Origin: Burkholderiales bacterium
GTDB taxonomy: Bacteria; Pseudomonadota; Gammaproteobacteria; Burkholderiales; SG8-41
Length of the DNA: 64,000 bases
Reading direction: 5' to 3'
Assembly: GCA_035259205.1 (NCBI GenBank)
Contig: DATFWO010000234.1
Location: 3,947 to 67,946 of the forward strand
The first letter of the stretch is position 1. Each line of letters starts with the position of its first letter. A model generated the notes under the pieces. The model had not been told where the DNA came from, did not search any database, and saw nothing but the letters and a program-made list of their open reading frames with translations. Positions 43,301 to 64,000 of the stretch are shown here, one piece after another. Made by a program: the position numbers and the translations under genes.

Positions 43301-43898
43301 AGTCACGCTCGATGACTTCAGCAAGGTCTTTGCGCCCGGCGGCGATCTGGACGATTTTTTCCAGAAGAACCTCGCGGTGCTGGTCGATACCTCTGGTCGT
43401 CAATGGCGCCCCCGTTCCGGCGACGGGGGCAGCACCGTCTCGCCGCAAACGATCGCGCAGTTTCAGCGGGCAGCCGCGATTCGCGACGCGTTTTACCGCA
43501 GCGGCTCCAAGATGCCCGCCGCTTCGGCAGAGCTCGCCCTGACGCAAATCGACGAGCGGCTGACGCACGCAACGATCGAAATCGACAACCAGGTGATGCG
43601 CTTCGACCGCATTGCGTCGATCCCGGCGCGGCTCGCGTGGCCGAGTCAACGTCCGGGCGGGCGTGTGCGCCTGCAGGTGTATCCGACCGGCGCCGCGATC
43701 GCCTTCGAAGGCACCTGGGCGTTGTTCAGACTCATCGATCGCGGAAATCCGCAGGTCGGGCCGCAGTCGGAGCGCATGCAGCTTACCTATGTGCTGGAGG
43801 GTGCCCGGGTGGTATTCGAATTGCGCGCCTCCAGCGCGGTCTACAACCCGTTTCATCTCCAGGCGCTGGAGGACTTCCGTTGTCCGAACCGACGTTGA
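40347..43898 (+). CDS. tssM: T6SS membrane subunit TssM (IcmF)
   Basis: 1183 aa. N-terminal TM segments, Walker A GAPGSGKTT, and IcmF-related central and C-terminal regions. The start is approximate (TTG 40347 or GTG 40359). Confidence 0.92.
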   Translation: MGERVRKLIRNRWFLGALMVLALALAIWFIGPALAIYDRRPLDSTIVRVALIVLVAAIWLGVELGRWWAARQANQKLLEGMAAGAEADPSAAKSVEEVATLRQRFEEASQVLKKARFENSSGEKQFLYELPWYAFVGAPGSGKTTALVNSGLHFPLGDGQQGHAVKGVGGTRNCDWWFTDEAVLLDTAGRYTTQESEQKTDAAAWLGFLDLLKKYRPRRPLNGAIITVSIADLLVWNEADRARYADAVRQRIQELYSRLGVRFPLYVMVTKSDLLAGFNEFFGSFGREERAQVWGMTFPHQAEAKVAVDYAPLFDSEFQALENRLNGILLDRVQQERDQQRRALIYNFPQQFSGLKSLLAEFVASVFQSSRYNEQGMLRGVYFSSGTQEGSPIDRVLGTLSRSFQLERKILPPSISSGKSFFLTNLLKELIFPEAGLAGANARLERKLRTALMAGYALVLVLTLGMATAWLVSYFRNQALISEFQAKADAVKETVDRLPPPALGDLLPVGNVLTSLRNLSEPYSSSDYRVPWSLTFGLYQGRKLSSQAVRTYQDALRDVLLPRVALRLEQLLVDGGNAVDQYDVLKNYLMLYSDKYLDPKGLEEFVVRDWLQTFRSPELSPPVKALQEHLRTALRNRPLEMAYRQNTQVVADTRKRLAGASLPERVYARLRQEAERADVPPFRLSDAAGPTAAQVFVRASKQPLSEGVPGMFTVAGYGKAVSPAVDAIARRMFEEESWVLGSKTGGAVGTALSSIPMLNEIRRRYFEDYAKEWDGFLGDIRLAPSADLSQTLQLAKLLSGPDSPLRRLMQSAAKELSFTGTGDVTSKAGIAKAATDAVVDFAKKTLGSGAAKVESLAVERPETIVEERFRSLREFVTAPAGGRAPIDRVTDAVKEYSVRLDAVSEALRRGDPTAPKLVDTAQLRMEADQAPLPAREVLRSLITASVGQAAGAAREKLASDVGGAASFCEKAIGSRYPFARAAQAEVTLDDFSKVFAPGGDLDDFFQKNLAVLVDTSGRQWRPRSGDGGSTVSPQTIAQFQRAAAIRDAFYRSGSKMPAASAELALTQIDERLTHATIEIDNQVMRFDRIASIPARLAWPSQRPGGRVRLQVYPTGAAIAFEGTWALFRLIDRGNPQVGPQSERMQLTYVLEGARVVFELRASSAVYNPFHLQALEDFRCPNRR

Positions 43899-44647
43899 TT
43901 GAATCGTTACGGCGGCCTGGCCTCTACGGCAAACTGCACAGCCACGGCGACTTCATTGCGCGGCGATTGCCCCAGAATTTCATCAGCGGGTGGGACGCGT
44001 GGCTGCAGGAAGGAATAGCCGTGAGCAAGAACGTGCTGGGGCCGGCGTGGGAGGACAAGTATCGCGAAGCGCCGGTCTGGCGGTTCGTCCTCCCGCCCGG
44101 GGTGTGCGGAACGCGGGCCTGGGCGGGCATCGTCCAGCCGAGCGTCGACCGCGTGGGCCGCTACTTTCCGCTCACCATTGCCGCGGCTCTGCCCGGTCCA
44201 TTGGATGCCCTCGGCACGCTCTTCGGGGCGGCGCCCTGGTACGCCGAGATCGAGCGCGAGGGCTCCGTCGCTTTCGACGCGACTGCCAGTCTTGATGACC
44301 TCGACGCCCGCCTCGAGACACTTGTTTTCCCGGCGGACTCCATTGCAGTCGCCATCGAAGAGGACGACGACACAAAGCCAATGGCCGAGCGTATCTTCAC
44401 TGCCGCGAAAGTGGATCTGGGAGGCAACATTTCGCGCGATGGCGCCAAAGCGGCTCTGAACAGCGAGCAGATTGTCATCGGCAGATGGGATTGCGTCTGG
44501 ATCAGCATGGATAGCGCTGTCGCCGAACCGGTACTGCTGGTATCCAAAGCGCTTCCGGAGCCTCGCTGCTTCTGCGCCCTGCTGGACGGCCATTGGGCCG
44601 AGCACGGCTGGGAGGCCGGTGTCAGCGGCGCGATTCCGAGCCACTGA
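43880..44647 (+). CDS. tagF: T6SS-associated protein TagF (ImpM/DUF2094)
   Basis: GLYGKLHSHGDFIARRLPQNFISGWDAWLQEGI...PVWRFVLPPG...AGIVQPSVDRVGRYFPLTI signature. No ATG is present; TTG at 43880 or 43895 overlaps the tssM end. Confidence 0.85.
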   Translation: MSEPTLIESLRRPGLYGKLHSHGDFIARRLPQNFISGWDAWLQEGIAVSKNVLGPAWEDKYREAPVWRFVLPPGVCGTRAWAGIVQPSVDRVGRYFPLTIAAALPGPLDALGTLFGAAPWYAEIEREGSVAFDATASLDDLDARLETLVFPADSIAVAIEEDDDTKPMAERIFTAAKVDLGGNISRDGAKAALNSEQIVIGRWDCVWISMDSAVAEPVLLVSKALPEPRCFCALLDGHWAEHGWEAGVSGAIPSH

Positions 44648-45811: not shown

Positions 45812-46333
45812 ATGGCGCAAAGCAGTCAGAAATTCATCGCACGCAACCGCGCACCGCGCGTACAGATCGAATACGACGTCGAGGTATACGGTTCGGAAAA
45901 GAAGGTCCAGCTGCCCTTCGTCATGGGAGTCATGTCGGACCTTTCGGGCAAGCCGGCAGATCCGCTGGCACCCGTGGCAGATCGGAAATTCCTCGAGATC
46001 GACGTCGACAATTTCGACGATCGGCTGAAGTCGATGAAGCCTCGCGTCGCGTTTCAGGTCCCCAACACCCTGACCGGTGAAGGAAACGTGAGCGTCGACA
46101 TCACCTTCGAGAGCATGGACGATTTCACGCCCGCCGCGATCGCGAAAAAGGTCGGTGCCCTCAACAAGCTGCTGGAAGCCCGCAGCGAGCTTGCCAATCT
46201 GCTCACGTACATGGATGGCAAGACCGGGGCGGAAGATCTGATCGCCAAGGTCATGAAGGACCCGAACCTGATGAAAGCGCTGTCGTCTGCGCCCAAGCCT
46301 GCGGAAGGCGGCTCGGAAGGCAAAGCCGGCTGA
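45812..46333 (+). CDS. tssB: T6SS contractile sheath small subunit TssB (VipA)
   Basis: RVQIEYDVEVYG..LPFVMGVMSDLSGK..IDVDNFDDRL signature. AAGGAG RBS. Confidence 0.95.
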   Translation: MAQSSQKFIARNRAPRVQIEYDVEVYGSEKKVQLPFVMGVMSDLSGKPADPLAPVADRKFLEIDVDNFDDRLKSMKPRVAFQVPNTLTGEGNVSVDITFESMDDFTPAAIAKKVGALNKLLEARSELANLLTYMDGKTGAEDLIAKVMKDPNLMKALSSAPKPAEGGSEGKAG

Positions 46334-52918: not shown

Positions 52919-55678
52919 ATGTCGGAGATCAGCCGCACCGCACTTTTCGGCAAGTTGAATTCGTTGGGATACAAGGCGATTGAAGGCGCCACGGTATTCT
53001 GCAAACTGAGAGGAAATCCCTACGTGGAGCTCGCGCACTGGCTGCATCAGATCGTGCAAAACCAGGACAGCGACCTGCACCGGATCTTCAAGCATTTCGG
53101 CATCGACCCGTCGCGATTTGCCGCGGACATGACGCGGGCGCTCGACGCTCTGCCGCGCGGCTCGACCTCCATCTCGGACCTGTCCGAGCACGTCGAGAAC
53201 GCGGTCGAGCGCGGCTGGGTGTACGGCACTCTCATGTTCGGCGAGAACGCCGTGCGCACCGGGCACCTCGTTGTCGGGTGCCTGAAGACGACCAACCTGC
53301 GCAACGCCCTGATGTCCATTTCACGGGAGTTCCAGAACATCAAGCCGGATGCGCTGAGCGAGGATTTTCACAAGATCGTGGCGGGCTCGCCTGAGGACAG
53401 TCTGGGATCAAGGGACGGCGCTTCCGTGGGGGGCGGGGCGGCGCCCGGCGAGGCGAGCGGCGCGCTCGCGCCGGCTCAGATGGGCAAGCAGGAGGCACTG
53501 CAGCGCTTCACCATCGATCTGACCGATGAAGCGCGCAAAGGGAAGATCGATCCCATCGTGGGCCGGGATGAGGAGATACGCCAGCTCGTCGATATCCTCA
53601 TGCGCCGGCGCCAGAACAACCCGATACTCACTGGCGAGGCGGGGGTCGGAAAGACCGCGGTGGTCGAGGGATTCGCGCTGCGCATCGCGGCCGGTGACGT
53701 CCCTCCCCCGTTGAAGGACGTGAGCCTCAAGACGCTGGATGTCGGCCTGCTGCAGGCGGGAGCTTCCATGAAGGGCGAATTCGAGCAGCGCCTGCGCCAG
53801 GTGATCGAGGAGGTGCAGTCATCGGCAAAGCCCATCATCCTGTTCATCGACGAAGCGCATACCCTGGTCGGGGCGGGAGGAGCCGCCGGCACCGGGGATG
53901 CCGCGAACCTTCTCAAACCCGCGCTTGCCCGCGGCACCTTGCGCACCGTCGCGGCGACGACGTGGGCCGAGTACAAGAAGCACATCGAGAAGGATCCCGC
54001 GCTCACGCGACGCTTTCAGACCGTGCAGGTGCCCGAGCCCACCGAGGAAAAGGGCATACTGATGATGCGCGGCGTCGCCTCGACCATGGAGCGTCATCAC
54101 CGCGTACAGGTCCTGGACGAGGCGCTGGAAGCGTCCGTCAGGCTGTCGCACCGTTACATACCGGGGCGCCAGCTGCCGGACAAGTCGGTGAGCCTGCTCG
54201 ACACGGCCTGCGCGCGCGTGGCGATCAGCCAGAGCGCGATGCCGCCGGAGGTCGAGGACAGCAAGCGGCGCATCGAAGCGCTGGAAAACGAGCTGGCGAT
54301 CATCGGACGCGAGGCGGCGGTCGGTATCGAGGTGGCGGATCGAAAATCGGTGGCGGACGAAAAGCTAGCCGCGGAACGGACGCGCCTCGCAGGCCTGGAA
54401 GAGCGCTGGAAGGCGGAAAAAGAGCTGGTCGACAAGATCCTCGACCTGCGCCGGCGCCTGCGTGGGGAAGTGGGCAAGGTCGAGGGCACCGACAGCAAGC
54501 TGGAGCAGGAGGCCGATGCTGCGGCGAAAAAGGTCAGTATCGATGCCGCTCCTGCGGCGCCGGCTTCGCCGCCGCTCGACGAAGCGGAGCGAACGCGCCT
54601 CCTCGGCGAGCTCAAGGAGCTGCAGGGGCGGCTGCAGCGCCATCAGGGCGACCGCCCGCTGGTGCTTCCCACTGTCGATCATCAGGCGGTGGCTTCGGTC
54701 GTCGAGGACTGGACCGGGATTCCGGTCGGCCGGATGGTCGCGAACGAGATCGAGGGGGTCCTCAAGCTCGCCGATAATATCGAAAAGCGCATCATCGGCC
54801 AGCGCCATGCGCTCGACATGATCGCCAAGCGCATCCAGACCTCGCGCGCCAAGCTGGACAACCCCAACAAGCCGATCGGCGTGTTCATGCTGGCGGGAAC
54901 GTCCGGCGTGGGCAAAACCGAAACCGCGCTGGCGCTCGCGGAGACGCTATACGGCGGTGAACAGAACCTCATCTCCATCAACATGAGCGAGTTTCAGGAG
55001 GCGCATACCGTGTCCACGCTCAAGGGCGCGCCTCCGGGTTACGTGGGCTACGGCGAGGGCGGCGTTCTGACCGAGGCGGTTCGTCGGCGCCCGTACAGCG
55101 TCGTCCTGCTCGACGAGGTGGAGAAGGCGCACCCCGACGTGCACGAGATCTTCTTCCAGGTTTTCGACAAGGGCTGGATGGAAGATGGCGAAGGCCGGGT
55201 CATCGACTTCAAGAACACCCTGATCCTGCTTACCACGAACGCAGGCACCGATCTCATCATGAACATGTGCAAGGACCCGGCGCTGATGCCGGAGCCGGAA
55301 GGGATAGCCAAGGCCCTGCGCGAGCCCTTGTTGAAGGTGTTCCCGCCCGCTCTGCTGGGGCGCCTGGTGGTGATACCGTACTATCCTCTCTCCGACGAGA
55401 TGATAGGGGCCATCGCCCGGCTTCAGCTCGGCCGGATCGAAAAGCGGATTCGGGACAACCACAAAGTCCCGTTCAGCTACGACGACGAGGTGGTCAAGCT
55501 CATCACGAGCCGGTGTACGGAGCTCGAAAGCGGCGGCCGCATGATCGATGCCATACTGACGAACACCATATTGCCGGCCATCGGGCGGGAGCTTCTTACG
55601 CGCATGATGGAGGGCAAGCTCGTCAACAAAGTGCACGTACGGGTAGATCAGGGAGAGTTCGCATACCGGTTCGACTGA
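52919..55678 (+). CDS. tssH: T6SS AAA+ ATPase ClpV (TssH)
   Basis: 919 aa. Clp_N domain and two Walker A motifs (GEAGVGKTA, GTSGVGKTE). Sits between tssG and vgrG. Confidence 0.95.
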   Translation: MSEISRTALFGKLNSLGYKAIEGATVFCKLRGNPYVELAHWLHQIVQNQDSDLHRIFKHFGIDPSRFAADMTRALDALPRGSTSISDLSEHVENAVERGWVYGTLMFGENAVRTGHLVVGCLKTTNLRNALMSISREFQNIKPDALSEDFHKIVAGSPEDSLGSRDGASVGGGAAPGEASGALAPAQMGKQEALQRFTIDLTDEARKGKIDPIVGRDEEIRQLVDILMRRRQNNPILTGEAGVGKTAVVEGFALRIAAGDVPPPLKDVSLKTLDVGLLQAGASMKGEFEQRLRQVIEEVQSSAKPIILFIDEAHTLVGAGGAAGTGDAANLLKPALARGTLRTVAATTWAEYKKHIEKDPALTRRFQTVQVPEPTEEKGILMMRGVASTMERHHRVQVLDEALEASVRLSHRYIPGRQLPDKSVSLLDTACARVAISQSAMPPEVEDSKRRIEALENELAIIGREAAVGIEVADRKSVADEKLAAERTRLAGLEERWKAEKELVDKILDLRRRLRGEVGKVEGTDSKLEQEADAAAKKVSIDAAPAAPASPPLDEAERTRLLGELKELQGRLQRHQGDRPLVLPTVDHQAVASVVEDWTGIPVGRMVANEIEGVLKLADNIEKRIIGQRHALDMIAKRIQTSRAKLDNPNKPIGVFMLAGTSGVGKTETALALAETLYGGEQNLISINMSEFQEAHTVSTLKGAPPGYVGYGEGGVLTEAVRRRPYSVVLLDEVEKAHPDVHEIFFQVFDKGWMEDGEGRVIDFKNTLILLTTNAGTDLIMNMCKDPALMPEPEGIAKALREPLLKVFPPALLGRLVVIPYYPLSDEMIGAIARLQLGRIEKRIRDNHKVPFSYDDEVVKLITSRCTELESGGRMIDAILTNTILPAIGRELLTRMMEGKLVNKVHVRVDQGEFAYRFD

Positions 55679-57872: not shown

Positions 57873-58415
57873 ATGGTCGGCCCTGACGCGATCGGCACGT
57901 TGACGCAGCTCCTGTGGATGTCTCCGCAGGACAAGGTTTACGCTCTCCTCGATGGCGCGAGCATTCCGAGCCTGCTGGAGCGCCTGTACGGCGAAAAACG
58001 CCCGCCGTTCGAGTGCCTGTTTCCGGGAGAGCTGGAGCCGGACATGGCGGAAGTCGCGCCCTATCTCGTTGAGCTCGATCGCGGAAGCGATTTTGCCGAG
58101 TGGGTCATGGGGCAGGGGTGGGGCAATCATTGGGGAATCTTTGCGGTATCGCAGGCGGACCTGAGGACGGTGTATTTTCACCTGCGCACCCTCAGCGTCG
58201 TGTATACGCCCGAAAGCAGGCCGATGCTCTTCCGCTACTACGACCCGCGGGTCATGCGACTATTCCTGACGACCTGCGCGCCCGAGCAGATCAAACAGCT
58301 GTTCGGTCCGGTCGAGCGGTTCGTGGCCGAAGGCGAGACTGCGACGGCAGCGCTCACGTTCACGCACGTAAACGGCGAGCCTCAAACGGGCACGCGCCAG
58401 ATACCTCTGAGATGA
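57873..58415 (+). CDS. DUF4123 domain protein (T6SS effector adaptor/chaperone family), short 180-aa form
   Basis: VYALLDGASIPSLLERL...FECLFPGELEPDMAEVAPYLVEL...GIFAVS...HLRTL...MLFRYYDPRVMRLFL matches the DUF4123 pattern. Immediately downstream of vgrG. Confidence 0.8.
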   Translation: MVGPDAIGTLTQLLWMSPQDKVYALLDGASIPSLLERLYGEKRPPFECLFPGELEPDMAEVAPYLVELDRGSDFAEWVMGQGWGNHWGIFAVSQADLRTVYFHLRTLSVVYTPESRPMLFRYYDPRVMRLFLTTCAPEQIKQLFGPVERFVAEGETATAALTFTHVNGEPQTGTRQIPLR

Positions 58416-59179
58416 TGCTTATATTCCGCGAAGAACAACTCCGCGCTTTTCAGAGTGCGTCACAGGCGAACTTCTGTCGCCGGCTGCTGCGCAACGTATG
58501 CGAGGAATTTCCGGACCGGTTGAAGATCTTCGGCGAGCCGGCGATCTCGGCGATGGTGAGCCTCGGGCTCGATCGCGCGAAGGCGCGTGGACTGGAATCC
58601 GAGGAGGCCGTAATGCGCCATCTCGGCATGATGATCCTCTTCGGAAGCTACTGGGAGAGCGATCCGCAGCTTCCCTGGGTAAAGCAATTCCTCGGACCGG
58701 CCGACGCCGCGACGGCGGAGCGCATGACGCAATTGTGGGAGCAGGCAAAGGTGGTCCGCCAGCGGATCATGGGACCCGACGACGGACTCTACCTTGCAGC
58801 CCTGCGCAGCATTGAAGGCAAGACGGTGGAAGACCTGACCAAATTTGCCAGCCGCTCCCACCGCGACCTGCTGATTCAGATTGCGGCAATGTATCCGCGC
58901 AAGTTCACCGAAGCGGGGGAGGCTGCTTTCGCGAACTGCACGCGGCTCGCGGTCGAGGCGTGCCGCCCGTTCGACCTGATGGACCGCTGGTCGGTCGTGC
59001 TGATGGTGGAGTTCATGCTTCTTTTTGGCGCCGGTTTCCTGAACGATCCCCTTTACGCCTGGGCGACGGAGGCGCTGAAGGACCCGCAGTGCGAGGGAGT
59101 CGATCAGAAGCTCGACCGCCTCCTCAAGGCGGCGCAGGATAAAGTCATATCTCGTACGGTCGGATCGCGCGCGAGCTGA
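58412..59179 (+). CDS. hypothetical protein with an internal two-fold duplication; candidate VgrG/DUF4123-dependent cargo (or immunity) protein
   Basis: Met105 of ORF 58100..59179, with an ATGA overlap to the DUF4123 stop. 255 aa, predicted all-helical, no signal peptide or TM segment. I recognise no family. Confidence 0.6.
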   Translation: MMLIFREEQLRAFQSASQANFCRRLLRNVCEEFPDRLKIFGEPAISAMVSLGLDRAKARGLESEEAVMRHLGMMILFGSYWESDPQLPWVKQFLGPADAATAERMTQLWEQAKVVRQRIMGPDDGLYLAALRSIEGKTVEDLTKFASRSHRDLLIQIAAMYPRKFTEAGEAAFANCTRLAVEACRPFDLMDRWSVVLMVEFMLLFGAGFLNDPLYAWATEALKDPQCEGVDQKLDRLLKAAQDKVISRTVGSRAS

Positions 59180-59387: not shown

Positions 59388-60383
59388 ATGAGGACAGGTT
59401 TGCTGGTTGTGGCGGCGGGTGTCGCCTTCGCCGGCCCGGCTCCGGCCATGGATTTCATCGATATCGCGCCCGTGATATCGGTTACGCCCTTGTATGGACC
59501 GGTTGCGGACGCGCGCGAATGCTTCGTCGCGGCTGCACCGCAGCCCGCGATGGCCGTCGCGCCATCCCCCCAGCCGGTCATGATGCCGGCGCAGGTTCCT
59601 CAGGGCGCAATGGCGCCTGGCGGCGCGCCGCCGCAGGAGCGCAGCGTCGTCGCTCCCGTCGTGGGTGGCGTAGCGGGGGCGTTGATCGGCAGCCAGGTGG
59701 GGCAGGGGCGTGGACGCGACGCGGCAACGGCAGTGGGTGCAGTTGCGGGTACCGTTGTCGCTGACCGCATGGCGAATCCGAATAGCGGCGGTTCGCTGAC
59801 GGGCGCAGTCGTAGGCGGCGGCGCCGGCGCGCTGCTCGGCAACCAGGTCGGGCAGGGTAGCGGGCGGACGGCGGCAACGGCCGCGGGAGCGATCGGCGGC
59901 GCGATGATCGGTGACCGCCTGATGTCCAGCCCACCACCCCAGCAGGCTGCGGTTCCGGGGCAGGTTCAGATGCAGCCGATGCAGCCGGGGCAGATACCGA
60001 TGCAGGCAGGGCAGATGCCGATGCAGCAGGCACAGGTAGTGGACCGCTGCCGCACGGTGGACGGCGTGCAGCGCGAGGTGCTCCGCGGGTACTCCGTAGT
60101 CTACCGTTACAACGGGCGCGACATTACGACGACGGTTTTAAATCACCCGGGGAGCACGATTCGAATCGCGGTCGGTCCGCTCGACAACTACCCACAGCAG
60201 CCCATGCAAGCCCAGAGCGGCTTTGCCGCCGGGGCTCCCGTCATGGTTCCACAGCAGCCCGTGATGATGCCTCAACAACCGATGATGGCGCCGCAGCAGC
60301 CCGTGATGACGCCTCAACAACCGGTAATGGCGCCGCAGCAGCCGATGATGGTGCCCCAGCAGCCGGTTGCCCTGCCCCAGTAG
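59388..60383 (+). CDS. secreted glycine-zipper (Rick_17kDa_Anti/SlyB-like) protein with Pro/Gln/Met-rich repeats
   Basis: Signal peptide (LLVVAAGVAFAGPAPA). Two glycine-zipper units (GGVAGALIGSQVGQGRGRDAATAVGAVAG; GGGAGALLGNQVGQGSGRTAATAAGAIGG). A conserved GYSVVYRYNGRDITTTVLNHPGSTIRI module. GAGGAGG RBS. Confidence 0.8.
   Translation: MRTGLLVVAAGVAFAGPAPAMDFIDIAPVISVTPLYGPVADARECFVAAAPQPAMAVAPSPQPVMMPAQVPQGAMAPGGAPPQERSVVAPVVGGVAGALIGSQVGQGRGRDAATAVGAVAGTVVADRMANPNSGGSLTGAVVGGGAGALLGNQVGQGSGRTAATAAGAIGGAMIGDRLMSSPPPQQAAVPGQVQMQPMQPGQIPMQAGQMPMQQAQVVDRCRTVDGVQREVLRGYSVVYRYNGRDITTTVLNHPGSTIRIAVGPLDNYPQQPMQAQSGFAAGAPVMVPQQPVMMPQQPMMAPQQPVMTPQQPVMAPQQPMMVPQQPVALPQ
60249..60380 (+). repeat. in-frame 21-nt tandem repeat (about 6.3 copies; PQQP[VM]M[x]) at the 3' end of the glycine-zipper gene
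   Basis: Read directly. ccgcagcagcccgtgatgnnn alternates with cctcaacaaccgrtratggcg, giving a 42-nt super-period. Confidence 0.8.
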
Positions 60384-60464: not shown

Positions 60465-62042
60465 TTGCCGGACGACCAGAGCCTGATCCGTGGAGGAGCC
60501 ATGCCCGGCCGCATCGGTTTCGACTTCCAGTTCTCGCAGCCGCGGGCGCGTAGCGCCAGCGCCCGGAGCGAGGAGAATCCCATGCGCATCCTTGTCATGG
60601 GCGACTTCAGTGGTCGTGCCAGCCGTGGTGTGGAGAATGCAGCTGATCTGGCGTCGCGCCCGATCGTTGCCGTGGATGTCGACAGCTTCGAGCAGGTATT
60701 GGCCGGATTTTCACCCGTTTTGCTTTTGTCGCCGGGAAAGGCAGCCGGGACGGACGTCGTTATCGAATTCCGGCAGCTCGACGACTTCCATCCCGGCCGG
60801 CTTTACCGCGAGTTGGACCTCTTTCAGTCGCTGCGGAAGTCACGGTCGCGCCTGCAAGACCCCGCGACTTTCGCCGAGGCCGCCGAGAAGCTGCAGACAG
60901 ATCGTGCGCAGAGTCCTCGGCCGGATCAGGGTCCTGCGACCGGGAGCAAACCCACCGCCGAAAATGATGCCGCGACGCTCGAGCGTCTGCTGGGCAGAAA
61001 AGCGGCAACCGTCGCGAGTAAGCCCGTCCTGCGTGCGGAACCGGCGGTGGTCGATGAATTGATCCGCAAAATCGTCGCTCCGCATATCGTTCCCGATGCT
61101 CCGCCTCACCAGGCGCAGTACGTCGCATCGGTCGATGCCGCCATCGAGGAGCAGATGCGGGTTATTTTGCACGACCCGGCGTTTCAAGCGCTGGAGTCCG
61201 GATGGCTGGCGATCCACTGGTTGATCTCCGAGCTCGAGTTCGGCGAGCAACTTCAGCTCTTTCTGCTGGATGTTACGCTGGATGAGCTGCGCTCCGACGC
61301 GCGGGCGGCGGACGGGAATCCCGAGCAGTCCAGCCTGTATCGTCTGTTGGTGGAGCAAGGAACCCGAACGCCAGGCGGCGAGCCGTGGTCGCTGCTCGCG
61401 GGTAATTATGCGTTCGGCCCGGATGAGGAGAATATCGAGCTGCTCGCGTTCCTCGGGGCGATCGCGTCGCAGGCGGGAGGGCCCTTCGTCGCGGCGGCGG
61501 AGAGCGGCATCCTCGGTTGTCGTTCGCTCGCCGACACACCGGATCCTCGGGAGTGGCAGCCGCTGGTTCCCACCGCCGAGCAATGCTGGCAGGCGCTGCG
61601 TAGAAGTTCCGTCGCGTCCTGGATCGGCCTTGCGCTGCCCCGGATCCTGCTCCGCGCGCCGTACGGGAAACGCAATGAAAGGGTCGAAGAATTTGAATTC
61701 GAGGAGCTGCCGGCGAGGGCGGCGCATGAACATTATCTGTGGGGAAACCCTGCCATAGCGTGCGCTTTGTTGATCGGGCGGTCCTTCCTCGCAAAGGGTT
61801 GGAGCATGGAAGTCGGAGACGAACGGGATATCGGTGGTCTGCCGGCGTGTGTGCTCGATCGCGACGGCGAAAAGGAGCTCCTTGCATGCGCTGAAGCCTA
61901 TCTCAGCGAACGCGCGGGAGAGGCGATCCTGGCGCGCGGTTTGATGCCCCTGCTCAGCCTCAAGAACCAGAACGCCGCGTGCTTGATGCGCTTTCAATCA
62001 CTGGCCGAACCGGCGCAGGCGTTCGCAGGGCCCTGGCGCTAG
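60465..62042 (+). CDS. TssB-TssC fusion-like protein (second, divergent and truncated contractile-sheath paralog)
   Basis: Single 525-aa ORF. Residues about 13-135 align to the cluster's own TssB, and about 205-525 to TssC residues about 75-375 (motif pairs are listed in the findings). The start is 60465 or Met13 at 60501. Confidence 0.75.
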   Translation: MPDDQSLIRGGAMPGRIGFDFQFSQPRARSASARSEENPMRILVMGDFSGRASRGVENAADLASRPIVAVDVDSFEQVLAGFSPVLLLSPGKAAGTDVVIEFRQLDDFHPGRLYRELDLFQSLRKSRSRLQDPATFAEAAEKLQTDRAQSPRPDQGPATGSKPTAENDAATLERLLGRKAATVASKPVLRAEPAVVDELIRKIVAPHIVPDAPPHQAQYVASVDAAIEEQMRVILHDPAFQALESGWLAIHWLISELEFGEQLQLFLLDVTLDELRSDARAADGNPEQSSLYRLLVEQGTRTPGGEPWSLLAGNYAFGPDEENIELLAFLGAIASQAGGPFVAAAESGILGCRSLADTPDPREWQPLVPTAEQCWQALRRSSVASWIGLALPRILLRAPYGKRNERVEEFEFEELPARAAHEHYLWGNPAIACALLIGRSFLAKGWSMEVGDERDIGGLPACVLDRDGEKELLACAEAYLSERAGEAILARGLMPLLSLKNQNAACLMRFQSLAEPAQAFAGPWR

Positions 62043-62234: not shown

Positions 62235-62624
62235 CTAGGGAATCATTTCGGTCGTCTGGCCGGGAAATGCGACCGAAATCACGCCGCCCCAGACACACAT
62301 CAGCTTCGACGTGTTGTTCAGCGAAGGCTGATTGGCCAGCGGCACCGTGGGCGAGCCGGGCGCCCATGGTGCGGGGGTATTCGGGATACACGGCATCGGC
62401 GTCAGAACCCCCATCGCGGCGGCGGTCGCCGATGCAACAGTGGGATTGGCTATGCTCGAGCACACGCCGAACGGCATGACGTTCACCATGGAAATGTGAT
62501 CCATGATATTGGCGGCCGGCTGATTGCTGGTGAGGACGCGGTTGATGGGCAACACGACGAAGATGCTCGGGGCTGCGCCAAAACTGCACTGCAGCACCGC
62601 GCCGTTGCAAACGTGTAATGGCAT
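62235..62624 (-). CDS. DUF4280 domain protein (PAAR-like spike-tip family)
   Basis: VCNGAVLQCSFGAAPS..., ANIMDHISMVNVMPFGVCSS.ANP.VASATAAAMGVLTPMPCIPNTPAPWAPGSPTV..., and KLMCVWGGVISV..PGQ match the DUF4280 pattern. Confidence 0.85.
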   Translation of the reverse strand: MPLHVCNGAVLQCSFGAAPSIFVVLPINRVLTSNQPAANIMDHISMVNVMPFGVCSSIANPTVASATAAAMGVLTPMPCIPNTPAPWAPGSPTVPLANQPSLNNTSKLMCVWGGVISVAFPGQTTEMIP

Positions 62625-62746: not shown

Positions 62747-64000
62747 ATGGTGGGCGCGGGGTCGACCGGCAGACGGGTGGCGGACCGCATGAAGCGTGCG
62801 GTCGCGTTGCACCGCGCGGGAAGAATGGCGGAGGCAGAGGCCATCTACCGCGTCATCCTCAAGCGGCTGCCCTCCCAGCCGGACGCGCTGCACTTCCTGG
62901 GGCTGATCCGCCAGCAGCAGGGACGCAGCGACGAGGCGATTCACCTCATGCGCCGCGCCACCGAGTTTGCGCCGGACTATGCCGATGCGTTCAACAATCT
63001 CGGGAATGCGCTCAAGACCACGGGTCGAATCGGCGAAGCCGAGATCTGCTACCGCAAAGCCATCGGCCTCGACGCGCGGCATGCGAACGCCTTGAGCAAC
63101 CTTGCCGTGGTGCTGCGGGCCAAAGGCGATCTTACAGCCGCCGAGGCGGCCTGCCGCAGCGCCATAGAAGCCATGCCGCGACACGTGGAGGCGCACAACA
63201 ACCTGGGTAACGTTCTTCGTGGCATGGGGCGCCACGACGAGGCGATCGGCTGCTATAGAGCATCCATCGCGCTCGACCCGCACCACGCGGACGGCCCCCG
63301 GATGCTAGGACTGGCTTTGTATGCGGCTGGCAGGATCGACGAAGCAAAGGAGGCCTACCAGCAATGGCTGGAACGCGATCCAGGCAACCCCGTGGCCGCG
63401 CACCTGCTGGCGGGATGCTCCGGCAGCAACGCGCCAGCGCGCGCGCCCGACGGCTATGTCAGGGACGTGTTCGAGGGCATGGCCGCTGAATTCGACGAGC
63501 ACCTGGCTCATTTGAAGTATCAGGCGCCTGCACTGGTCGGGGCCGCGCTCGCCCGCGTATTGCCCGATCCGAACGGTGCTCTGGAAGTGCTCGATGCAGG
63601 TTGCGGCACCGGCCTGTGCGGCAGCGCGCTGCGAGCATATGCGCAGGAACTGACCGGAGTCGACCTTTCGCCAGCGATGCTGCGGCGCGCGGCGCAACGC
63701 GGACTCTACGACCATCTCGTCGAAGAGGAATTGACGGCGCATCTGAAGGCGCAGCGCGCCCGGTATGACCTGATCGTCTCGGCGGATACGCTCTGCTACT
63801 TCGGTGTGCTGCAGGATGTACTCGCAGCGGCGGCGGGCGCGCTGCGCGCCCGCGGCTGGATCGTATTTTCGGTCGAAGAGGCGCAGGGCGAGGCACCGCT
63901 TGCAGGATACCGGCTCGACCCGCACGGCAGATACTCGCACACGAACGACTACGTGCGTGGCGTGCTCGAGAGTACGGGTTTCCAAGCGTCGACGATCGAA
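62747..64000 (+). CDS. TPR-repeat protein fused to a class I SAM-dependent methyltransferase domain (3' end beyond the window)
   Basis: My own translation; not in the ORF track because no stop is reached. MVGAGSTGRR...AEAIYRVILKRLPSQPDALHFLGLI.. carries several TPRs (NLGNALKTTGRIGEAEICYRKAIGLD; NLGNVLRGMGRHDEAIGCYRASIALDP). Then the SAM motif I VLDAGCGTGLCG and DLIVSADTLCYFG. Confidence 0.75.
   Translation, partial: MVGAGSTGRRVADRMKRAVALHRAGRMAEAEAIYRVILKRLPSQPDALHFLGLIRQQQGRSDEAIHLMRRATEFAPDYADAFNNLGNALKTTGRIGEAEICYRKAIGLDARHANALSNLAVVLRAKGDLTAAEAACRSAIEAMPRHVEAHNNLGNVLRGMGRHDEAIGCYRASIALDPHHADGPRMLGLALYAAGRIDEAKEAYQQWLERDPGNPVAAHLLAGCSGSNAPARAPDGYVRDVFEGMAAEFDEHLAHLKYQAPALVGAALARVLPDPNGALEVLDAGCGTGLCGSALRAYAQELTGVDLSPAMLRRAAQRGLYDHLVEEELTAHLKAQRARYDLIVSADTLCYFGVLQDVLAAAAGALRARGWIVFSVEEAQGEAPLAGYRLDPHGRYSHTNDYVRGVLESTGFQASTIE

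Follow-up and report, generated by a model that had tools for sequence, protein, structure and literature searches.

By sequence, domain content and modelled fold, a gene at the edge of a T6SS cluster in the 64,000-nucleotide Burkholderiales stretch analysed here (the window) encodes a genuine single-chain TssB- and TssC-like paralog that corresponds to the outer half of one sheath protomer. We read its product as a sheath-subunit mimic that does not itself polymerise; it would engage ClpV or another reader of its linker motif and tune sheath turnover or anchoring, and we give this reading a probability of about 45%. The reading draws on homology, domain content, conservation, gene context and motif co-variation, from which we infer every binding event and physiological effect named below.

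The fusion protein retains the outer half of a sheath protomer

The gene is an intact ORF on the forward strand (60465-62042, +) that gives 525 aa from an upstream TTG at 60465. Its true start is almost certainly the ATG at 60501, preferred over the TTG because a GGAGGA Shine-Dalgarno sequence is located at 60492-60497. From this ATG, the gene (60501..62042, +) yields a 513-aa product that is identical (100%) to the database protein P0001, which begins MPGR and comes from a Burkholderiales MAG. The same cluster contains a separate canonical tssB (45812-46333, +) and a full-length tssC with PF18945 (46371-47861, +), which makes the fusion gene a second sheath paralog, as the original prediction had it.

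Pfam models of both sheath subunits matched the 525-aa form: PF05591 (VipA) at residues 34-142 (E 7.6e-12, 45.7 versus 24 bits) and PF05943 (VipB N-domain) at residues 218-513 (E 1e-62), over profile positions 2-300 of 301. Compared directly with the proteins of the window, the fusion was 31% identical to TssC over 312 aa (E 2e-48; fusion 196-501 with TssC 57-368) and 27% identical to TssB over 132 aa (E 1e-9), and hhalign of the family profiles paired residues 184-508 with TssC 42-374 (E 3e-53) and residues 25-126 with TssB 34-136 (E 4e-14). The TssB/VipA-like segment (residues 25-126) is located at 60573..60878 (+) and the TssC/VipB N-domain-like segment (residues 184-508, sheath domains 2 and 3) at 61050..62024 (+), with a disordered Pro/Ala/Arg-rich linker at residues 136-197 (60906..61091, +; pLDDT below 50, flanking columns 21% conserved). 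An AlphaFold2 model of the fusion (pLDDT 73, pTM 0.77), when searched against the PDB, retrieved T6SS sheath large subunits only, the best being 5n8n_B (E 4e-17). The claim of TssB and TssC homology in a single ORF is borne out by the agreement of Pfam, pairwise, hhalign and structure searches, and the proposed profile searches (Pfam, NCBIfam and hhalign) gave significant VipA and VipB N-domain homology and set the domain boundaries.

In the sheath, domain 1 of TssC forms the handshake layer, while TssB and TssC both contribute to domains 2 and 3, which make the lateral contacts (PMC5807055). The canonical protomer of P. aeruginosa (TssB1C1, PDB 5n8n), the best structural and sequence match, shares with the fusion the fold of domains 2 and 3, a TssB-like β-arm and a TssC-like N-terminal helix motif. 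Unlike this protomer, the fusion is a single chain of about 30% identity and scores below both NCBIfam equivalog cut-offs (TIGR03355 for TssC, 211.5 versus 271.5 bits; TIGR03358 for TssB, 38.4 versus 97.25 bits); its VipA part is, as judged from sequence, a TssB-like segment and no orthologue of TssB. It also differs in having neither domain 1, the gp25-like handshake acceptor that contacts Hcp, nor the C-terminal arm. Pairwise and hhalign alignments with TssC stop at TssC residue 368-374 of 496, the fusion protein ends about five residues past residue 508 with no gp25-like domain 1, and PF18945, the gp25-like C-terminal handshake domain, gave no Pfam match to the fusion at E up to 1, while it is present in the TssC of the window; the last ~120 residues of TssC are missing, as had been noticed. 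Because this handshake domain is missing, the fusion would not propagate sheath polymerisation normally, in line with the original prediction, and is presumably unable to serve as a polymerising sheath subunit.

The short form is widespread and belongs to the TssCL kind

The best 120 database homologs all share the fusion architecture, and the recurrence survey suggested at the outset gave ~400 pattern-confirmed matches in GTDB species-representative genomes (one genome per species). The phyla represented are Pseudomonadota, Acidobacteriota, Desulfobacterota, Planctomycetota, Gemmatimonadota and Rokubacteria, and among the groups with the short form are Burkholderiales, Gammaproteobacteria, Acidobacteriota, Desulfobacterota and Planctomycetota. 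The fusion occurs in over 80 independent genomes of several phyla, some of them complete, and always lies inside or beside a T6SS cluster with normal tssB and tssC. Members from different phyla are 40-60% identical, a 20-sequence alignment at 50-64% identity has 71 invariant columns, and the family shares the C-terminal end RFQSLADP..LAGPW. In a neighbour-joining tree of the TssC core (303 columns), the fusions formed a clade separate from the canonical TssC of both ClpV classes (100/100). Two cysteines of the fusion, C340 and C421, are family-specific.

The name TssCL was given to a long roseobacter form by Suria et al. 2022 (Front Microbiol) from sequence analysis only; the form was reported as restricted to Alphaproteobacteria and was described with two VipA domains in strain ANG-M7 (PMC9515649). 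Like TssCL, the fusion gene of the window is a second sheath-annotated gene in an H1-like T6SS cluster that keeps a single tssB and tssC, and it encodes VipA and VipB domains in one polypeptide without VipB_2. The two form one clade on the TssC core (100/100 bootstrap, neighbour-joining, 303 columns), and roseobacter TssCL, whose gene lies between clpV and vgrG, matched the window protein in a single tblastn piece (residues 24-512, 30-34% identity, 95% of the protein). TssCL has 1,100-1,700 aa and long acidic N- and C-terminal LDxLLG-like arrays, whereas the window protein has 513 aa and a single motif; with its one VipA domain, it also departs from the "long" TssCL (>1,000 aa, two VipA). Homologs from Leisingera and Ruegeria (1,370 and 1,136 aa) gave one VipA match each. 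We conclude that the short form is a new, widespread variant of the barely described TssCL kind. The TssCL report (PMC9515649) makes no mention of the missing handshake domain, the motif or methyltransferase neighbours, and full-text searches on fused, paralogous or sheath-like TssB/TssC gave no account of the short form. The statement that the protein is no named component holds for the 2026 review table of T6SS accessory genes, in which no sheath-derived component appears, but it overlooked TssCL, the named long form of the same clade.

The second TssC of group 5 in Agrobacterium tumefaciens, TssC40 (Atu4340), is required for Hcp secretion (PMC3702570). Like this non-redundant protein, the fusion is an extra TssC-like gene product of a T6SS cluster. 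The equivalent second tssC of Phyllobacterium, unlike the fusion, encodes a stand-alone, full-length protein with VipB and VipB_2 and no TssB part. Identity of the fusion with TssC40-like paralogs was rejected, since the Phyllobacterium example lacks VipA and forms its own branch outside the fusion clade.

A recognition-helix-like motif is conserved in the linker

The motif TLERLLG at residues 159-165 (60975..60995, +) is a suggestive counterpart of the TssC N-terminal recognition helix. Among 82 non-redundant members, the surrounding linker is variable (top-residue frequency 0.21), while E154 is conserved in 71% and R162, L163, L164 and G165 in 77-80% each. The motif was of the xxRLLG type in 62 of the 82 (TLERLLG in the window) and of the LLDxIx type in 16, all of which read literally LLD[QERA][IM][ILV]; the LLDxI[ILV] form occurs in relatives from Acidobacteriota and Desulfobacterota. 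It lies ~20 residues ahead of the TssC homology, equal to the spacing of the N-terminal motif in TssC, and HMMER aligned it with the "LLDRII" helix of a solved TssC. The hhalign alignment with TssC did not extend into the motif, and we report the equivalence, for which position, pattern and one HMMER alignment speak, as suggestive. The original prediction held that a linker replaces the first ~70 residues of TssC, that the ClpV-recognition helix is lost with them, and that the protein cannot be recycled by ClpV. A disordered linker does take that place, but it keeps the helix-like motif; the conservation of this motif, its TssC-like spacing and its LLD[QERA][IM][ILV] form in 16 members speak against loss of the helix, and the retained motif contradicts "cannot be recycled" as an inference from sequence.

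In Vibrio cholerae, the LLDEI[IM]-type TssC helix, whose motif those 16 members carry, was found experimentally to bind a groove of the ClpV N-domain, whereas in the ClpV1 class this groove is obstructed and ClpV1 binding does not require the N-terminal helix of TssC1 (PMC4239648). The ClpV of the window (52919..55678, +), a candidate reader of the motif, belongs to the blocked-groove ClpV1 class by the criteria of that study (R6, I85, D87, L88). The flavour of the fusion motif agreed with the class of the co-resident ClpV in 24 of 24 readable loci, a correlation that reflects essentially one evolutionary split (two clades) and not 24 independent events. ClpV carried R6 and SISDLS in 17 of them, where the visible TssC has DFASLL/EFSALL, and L6 and RTPALS in the other seven, where the visible TssC has LLDQIV/LLDRII/ILDKII; eight more loci had no readable clpV, and their TssC, where visible, likewise has DFASLL/EFSALL. 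As the fusion clade stands apart from the canonical TssC of both classes, the motif would have changed in parallel in both paralogs.

In roseobacter TssCL, the L[DE]xLL[GAD] arrays contained 11 strict copies versus 0.36 expected, a pattern that would be expected of a binding motif whose valency matters. The short form has one copy, and the amplification in roseobacter TssCL is roughly ten- to thirty-fold.

The T6SS cluster of the window also has a tagJ gene. TagJ/HsiE1 links the N-terminus of TssB with ClpV in ClpV1-type systems (PMC4239648), and is, like the fusion, an accessory factor of the T6SS class with a ClpV1-type ATPase. The TPR-like fold of TagJ (ImpE) is unrelated to that of the fusion, TagJ is not homologous to the sheath, and the TssB N-terminal helix that TagJ binds is missing from the fusion.

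An N-terminal strand resembles the TssB donor arm

The amphipathic strand RIGFDFQFS at residues 4-12 (60510..60536, +) is, judging from its pattern, likely the counterpart of the TssB β1 donor arm RVQIEYDV. Across 82 sequences, the hydrophobic fraction at residues 5-11 alternates as 0.88/0.05/0.95/0.02/0.94/0.10/0.84, and the gap to the next strand equals that of TssB. The hhalign alignment with TssB did not extend into the arm, where no significant profile homology was found, and we report the equivalence, which rests on position and pattern, as suggestive. The strand was unstructured in the AlphaFold2 monomer model.

The conserved arm lends some support to the capping, length-control or inhibitory role raised in the original prediction. 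With such an arm, the fusion might act as a cap, collar or initiator: the arm would plug a free handshake acceptor, either that of TssC domain 1 where the sheath ends or that of the gp25-like TssE in the baseplate, while the outer-layer module decorates the ring, and the sheath would be stabilised, terminated or set in length. The conserved alternation and TssB-like spacing of the strand are consistent with this, as is its lack of structure in the monomer model, the state predicted for a donor arm; domains 2 and 3, which make lateral sheath contacts, are retained, and accessory factors known to act on sheath stability already include TagA/TsmA, TagB/TsmB and TagJ. We nevertheless consider such a role unlikely, since the fusion has neither an acceptor domain nor a C-terminal arm, its arm homology is not significant in profile comparison, and both the conservation of the recognition helix and the amplification in TssCL would be left unexplained. 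Moreover, TssB arms are exchanged within the closed sheath ring (PMC5807055), so no vacant acceptor is documented.

Methyltransferase and vgrG genes recur beside the fusion gene

SAM methyltransferase genes were located within 3 kb of the fusion gene in 25 of 57 loci. They belong to three unrelated families, namely TPR plus BioC/UbiG-like, Trm112-like zinc ribbon plus OvoA-C-like, and HemK/PrmC-like with a PPY motif. The window itself has a TPR plus class I SAM methyltransferase gene (62747..64000, +), cut by the window end, and in locus L080 the order "clpV> FUS> MTase> vgrG>" (FUS, fusion gene; MTase, methyltransferase) is part of a series of core T6SS genes that all point the same way. Enzymes of the HemK/PrmC type and those with a Trm112 partner usually methylate proteins. 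The sheath-like body might then be a methyltransferase substrate, or a subunit that targets the enzyme to TssB/TssC or other T6SS proteins, with methylation as the regulatory output. The recurrence of non-orthologous enzymes argues for this idea, yet more than half of the loci have no adjacent methyltransferase, including all Competibacter and roseobacter loci examined, no methyltransferase-sheath fused protein was seen, and the family yielded no conserved residue as a candidate target. Neither the accessory-gene review table nor full-text searches on T6SS together with methyltransferase terms turned up methylation of T6SS components, and we regard methylation as the primary role of the fusion as quite improbable.

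A vgrG gene was located within 10 kb of the fusion gene in 55 of 86 loci, and the recurrent orders were "<vgrG FUS>", "clpV> FUS> [MTase>] vgrG>" and "FUS> tssB> tssC>". A universal tie to vgrG was rejected, as the gene precedes tssB in Terriglobia and is divergent from tssA elsewhere. Secreted cargo, an effector or an adaptor of the vgrG/PAAR module would fit the usual vgrG neighbour and, in the window, the adjoining DUF4123 gene, DUF4280 PAAR-like gene and small unknown genes. However, the fusion lacks a toxin domain as well as a consistent immunity partner, heads the tssB-tssC operon in Terriglobia and retains motifs that face sheath partners. Fast-evolving effectors would not be expected to keep 40-60% identity from phylum to phylum, and we consider such a cargo, effector or adaptor role highly improbable. 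A functionless, decaying duplicate or an annotation or assembly artefact, to which the scores under both equivalog cut-offs might point, is effectively refuted by family conservation: an assembly or sequencing fusion, raised as a caveat in the original prediction, was excluded because over 80 independent assemblies contain the same intact fusion in addition to separate tssB and tssC, and the many invariant residues, the common C-terminal end and the strong ribosome-binding site argue against decay.

A proposed role in sheath turnover

For the favoured sheath-subunit mimic, we propose that tssB and tssC were duplicated and fused long ago. In a single chain, the product would have kept domains 2 and 3 of one protomer, in which TssB and TssC interlock to form its middle and outer layers, together with the TssB-type N-terminal β-arm and the recognition helix of the TssC N-terminus, which now lies exposed in the flexible linker; it would have lost domain 1, the inner handshake acceptor touching the Hcp tube, and the TssC C-terminal donor arm. 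Such a protein is most likely a soluble or peripherally docked protomer mimic that constitutively presents its helix to a reader of the TssC helix. For the LLDxII flavour, this reader would be ClpV, by extrapolation from the tested ClpV-VipB pair of Vibrio cholerae; for the flavour of the window, it may be ClpV1 or another partner. By recruiting, retaining or buffering the disassembly machinery, the fusion could adjust how the sheath is turned over or anchored, and in many lineages the neighbouring SAM-dependent methyltransferase probably acts with it. The effect on firing may be positive or negative.

A more ambitious version, which we entertain only tentatively and consider rather unlikely, is a widespread, overlooked regulatory module: a non-polymerising decoy or adaptor protomer with an always-exposed motif, β-arm docking and a dedicated protein methyltransferase, which together would decide at what time and place the sheath is taken apart by ClpV or left intact. 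If true, it would add a new, possibly methylation-based control layer to T6SS firing cycles.

Sheath dynamics, that is, assembly, stability and ClpV-driven recycling, set the frequency and effectiveness of T6SS firing, and none of the known modulators TssA, TagA, TagB and TagJ is derived from the sheath. Here, the sheath genes appear to have undergone duplication and fusion and to have shed the polymerisation domain, with both partner-facing elements kept, and several bacterial phyla have preserved the product. If the motif binds ClpV, recycling would have its first regulator that mimics the sheath, and the fusion would offer a handle on how blocked-groove ClpV1-class systems recognise the sheath. 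T6SS control might also involve post-translational methylation, as the methyltransferase genes that recur beside the fusion gene suggest. Cultured hosts, among them Leisingera, Ruegeria, Phaeobacter, Pseudoduganella namucuonensis and Methylobacter, make these proposals testable. The wider distribution corrects the published view of such fusions as roseobacter-only, and the fusions are systematically mis-annotated as "contractile sheath large subunit".

A single-chain TssB-TssC fusion without the handshake domain

The fusion gene is an intact ORF (60465-62042, + strand) whose likely start is the ATG at 60501, 12 codons 3ʹ of the ORF start and preceded at 4 nt by a GGAGGA box. Translation from this ATG gives a 513-aa protein with 100% identity to a public Burkholderiales MAG protein (P0001). 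The original prediction of a TssB-TssC fusion in one ORF was borne out: Pfam searches detected VipA/TssB (E 7.6e-12) and the VipB/TssC N-domain (E 1e-62), and the NCBI equivalog models for TssC and TssB both matched, each under its cut-off. By BLASTP, the protein aligned with the window TssC (31% identity over 312 aa, E 2e-48; fusion residues 196-501 against TssC 57-368) and with the window TssB (27% identity over 132 aa, E 1e-9), and profile-profile comparison was consistent with both homologies. When the AlphaFold2 model (pLDDT 73, pTM 0.77; residues 136-197 disordered) was searched against PDB structures, only T6SS large sheath subunits were retrieved, the best being P. aeruginosa TssC1 (E 4e-17).

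The Pfam search returned no match of the fusion protein to PF18945, the gp25-like C-terminal domain, in agreement with the predicted loss of the C-terminal handshake domain of TssC. The sheath domains are those defined in the TssB1C1 structure (PMC5807055). Domain 1, the inner layer of the handshake, is formed by TssC C-terminal strands together with the donated TssC C-terminal and TssB N-terminal strands; in domain 2, TssB and TssC share a mixed β-sheet, and domain 3 is a bundle of helices, the TssC N-terminal helix among them. The fusion retains domains 2 and 3 in a single chain. Because domain 1 and the C-terminal arm are absent, it would be unable to accept the arms of its neighbours, touch the tube normally or extend a protofilament.

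Across 82 non-redundant sequences, the hydrophobic fractions of residues 5-11 were 0.88, 0.05, 0.95, 0.02, 0.94, 0.10 and 0.84. The N-terminal β-strand lies about 20 residues ahead of the MRILVMGDFSG strand, the same placement as RVQIEYDV in TssB, and is unstructured in the monomer AlphaFold2 model. Judged from sequence, the partner-facing elements that survive in the fusion are this strand and the linker motif.

Distribution of the fusion family and its named relatives

Among the best 120 of more than 2,700 database matches, all were 460-585 aa long with both VipA and VipB, except for one 442-aa entry with the VipB domain alone recorded. A GTDB scan with one genome per species gave about 400 confirmed matches, and this recurrence of the VipA+VipB architecture ruled out a one-off fusion accident. 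The hosts were Burkholderiales, Alphaproteobacteria, Terriglobia and other Acidobacteriota, Desulfobacterota, Planctomycetota, Gemmatimonadota, Rokubacteria, Eisenbacteria and many Gammaproteobacteria (Competibacter, Sedimenticola, tubeworm symbionts, Methylobacter and Methylomicrobium). In an alignment of 20 diverse members, 71 columns were invariant and the terminal sequence RFQSLADP..LAGPW was shared. Five Cys and His residues (C340, C421, C463, H97 and H409 in the 513-aa numbering) are invariant or nearly so and may form a metal site; C340 and C421 occur in the fusion family alone, H409 and C463 in canonical TssC as well.

In 86 fetched loci, the fusion gene was located inside or abutting a T6SS cluster with an ordinary TssB and a full-length TssC. 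It was most frequently divergent from vgrG; in Desulfobacterota it lay between clpV and vgrG, co-directional with them, in Terriglobia immediately 5ʹ of tssB-tssC, and elsewhere divergent from tssA. In one Planctomycetaceae MAG (L073:10530-11519), the 5ʹ half appeared disrupted or frameshifted and the C-terminal part alone aligned; the gene may be a pseudogene or misassembled.

When plasmids were searched with the protein, Leisingera, Phaeobacter, Ruegeria and relatives gave single-gene matches that covered 95% of the query at 30-34% identity. Those of Leisingera methylohalidivorans (L087:11604-15716, plasmid NC_023136.1; 1,370 aa, between clpV and vgrG) and Ruegeria conchae (L090:4303-7713; 1,136 aa) carry VipA and VipB at the C-terminal end, without VipB_2, behind acidic N-terminal extensions of about 550-780 aa; the Leisingera protein has an additional C-terminal tail. 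Repeats of the linker motif in LDxLLG-like form (LDDLLG, LDELLG, LDALLG and so on) make up both the extensions and the tail. In the Leisingera extension, 11 strict copies were counted where shuffles predict 0.36, along with about 30 looser copies some 20 residues apart. These repeats appear to resemble the consensus of the eukaryotic paxillin 'LD motif', LDxLLxxL. The fusion had been predicted to be no named component, and the accessory-gene table of a 2026 review indeed has no sheath-derived entry, but the type was named TssCL in 2022 as a TssB/TssC fusion described as confined to roseobacters (PMC9515649). The fusion is a new short variant, far more widespread, of a type with a single earlier mention in the literature. 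It is not a paralog of the Agrobacterium TssC40 type, which, unlike the fusion, is a stand-alone full-length second TssC.

The linker motif and the class of the T6SS

The ClpV-recognition helix had been thought lost, and this claim did not hold. In the 82 non-redundant sequences, E154 of the linker was conserved in 71% and R162, L163, L164 and G165 in 77-80%, against a top-residue frequency of 0.21 in flanking columns. The motif lies about 20 residues N-terminal of the start of TssC homology, a spacing equal to that of the N-terminal motif in TssC, and HMMER placed it opposite the LLDRII helix in the structure of Azotobacter TssC. It reads LLD[QERA][IM][ILV] in 16 members (Acidobacteriota and Desulfobacterota) and [FLM]xRLLG in 62, the window protein among them. 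The LLDxIx-type motif of V. cholerae VipB is an established ligand of the groove in the ClpV N-domain (PMC4239648).

In the 24 loci with a readable ClpV, the motif followed ClpV class. Seventeen had the ClpV1 type (R6/..SISDLS..), all 17 with xxRLLG-type fusions, and tssC encoded DFASLL/EFSALL wherever it was visible, both in these loci and in eight others whose clpV was not readable. The other seven had the Vibrio type (L6/..RTPALS..), all with LLDxIx-type fusions, and their TssC contained LLDQIV, LLDRII or ILDKII wherever tssC was visible. On a neighbour-joining tree of the TssC core, the fusions and roseobacter TssCL formed one clade (100/100) outside the canonical TssC of both classes, with two sub-clades mirroring the two system classes; the motif therefore changed in parallel in TssC and in the fused paralog. 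This parallel change, essentially one evolutionary event, is what a shared binding partner would predict.

Proposed function and methyltransferase neighbours

For a family of real interest to T6SS specialists, we infer the following mechanism. The fusion would mimic the outer half of a sheath protomer in a single chain that does not polymerise, presenting a TssB-type docking arm and a permanently exposed TssC recognition helix; by engaging the factor that reads this helix, it would influence the turnover or anchoring of the sheath (probability about 0.45). For the LLDxII flavour, the reader would be ClpV, as extrapolated from the V. cholerae ClpV-VipB pair, for which binding has been tested; in the ClpV1 class, to which the window system belongs, the groove of ClpV is blocked, and ClpV1 binding does not require the TssC1 N-terminal helix (PMC4239648). 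The effect on ClpV might be recruitment, retention or buffering, candidates that sequence does not distinguish. A structural collar or cap, docked through the same N-terminal arm, seems unlikely.

Clustering of flanking ORFs revealed SAM methyltransferases of three unrelated types adjoining the fusion gene: TPR plus BioC/UbiG-like, Trm112-like zinc ribbon plus OvoA-C-like, and HemK/PrmC-like with a PPY motif. The window has the TPR type, a TPR-repeat and class I SAM methyltransferase gene on the + strand (62747-64000, continuing past the window end), 705 bp 3ʹ of the fusion. One of the three types occurred within 3 kb in 25 of the 57 loci with at least 3 kb on both sides of the fusion, and in L080 the order is tssF> tssG> clpV> fusion> MTase> vgrG. 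Such non-orthologous replacement argues for a functional link, though the neighbour is absent in many lineages. That the fusion is a methyltransferase substrate or targeting subunit appears somewhat less probable than a collar, and would be compatible with engagement of the recognition-helix reader. A role as cargo or adaptor is highly improbable, and a non-functional relic is barely credible; the remaining probability falls to other functions.

The T6SS cluster of the window

The gene order is tssK, tssL(OmpA), tssM, tagF, tssA, tssB, tssC, hcp, tagJ, tssE, tssF, tssG, clpV and vgrG, followed by a DUF4123 adaptor gene, a 255-aa gene, a glycine-zipper gene, the fusion, a convergent DUF4280 gene and the TPR-methyltransferase gene. 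The putative ImpM-like tagF (about 43905-44647, + strand), recognized by eye from conserved motifs, lies between tssM and tssA, where a longer ORF (43403-44647) overlaps it. Over the part of the cluster that the window covers (37488-64000), the ORF scan, which took in small ORFs in part, showed no tssJ, fha or ppkA, and the cluster may extend past the window; TssCL-bearing roseobacter clusters are likewise reported without tssJ (PMC9515649). The window ClpV has R6, I85, D87 and L88, and the window TssC starts ..DEFSALLKKEF. Förster et al. (PMC4239648) give criteria for the P. aeruginosa H1 class, namely a blocked ClpV groove, TagJ and a TssC without the LLDEII motif, and these place the window system in that class.

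The DUF4123 adaptor and the 255-aa protein (57873-59179, + strand) also occur as a pair 3ʹ of vgrG in related loci, about 13-15 in number, from Competibacter and others. The 255-aa protein had no match in Pfam or NCBIfam; it may serve as an effector or act together with the adaptor. The glycine-zipper protein (Rick_17kDa_Anti; 59388-60383, + strand) has an N-terminus resembling a signal sequence and ends in a repetitive tail rich in Pro, Gln and Met (QQPVM/PQQP); its homologs lie near fusion and TPR-methyltransferase genes in the fetched loci L005/L006 and L018. The PAAR-like DUF4280 gene (62235-62624, - strand) is convergent with the fusion gene; the two are also paired in L005, L018, L049, L055 and L081, mostly divergently.
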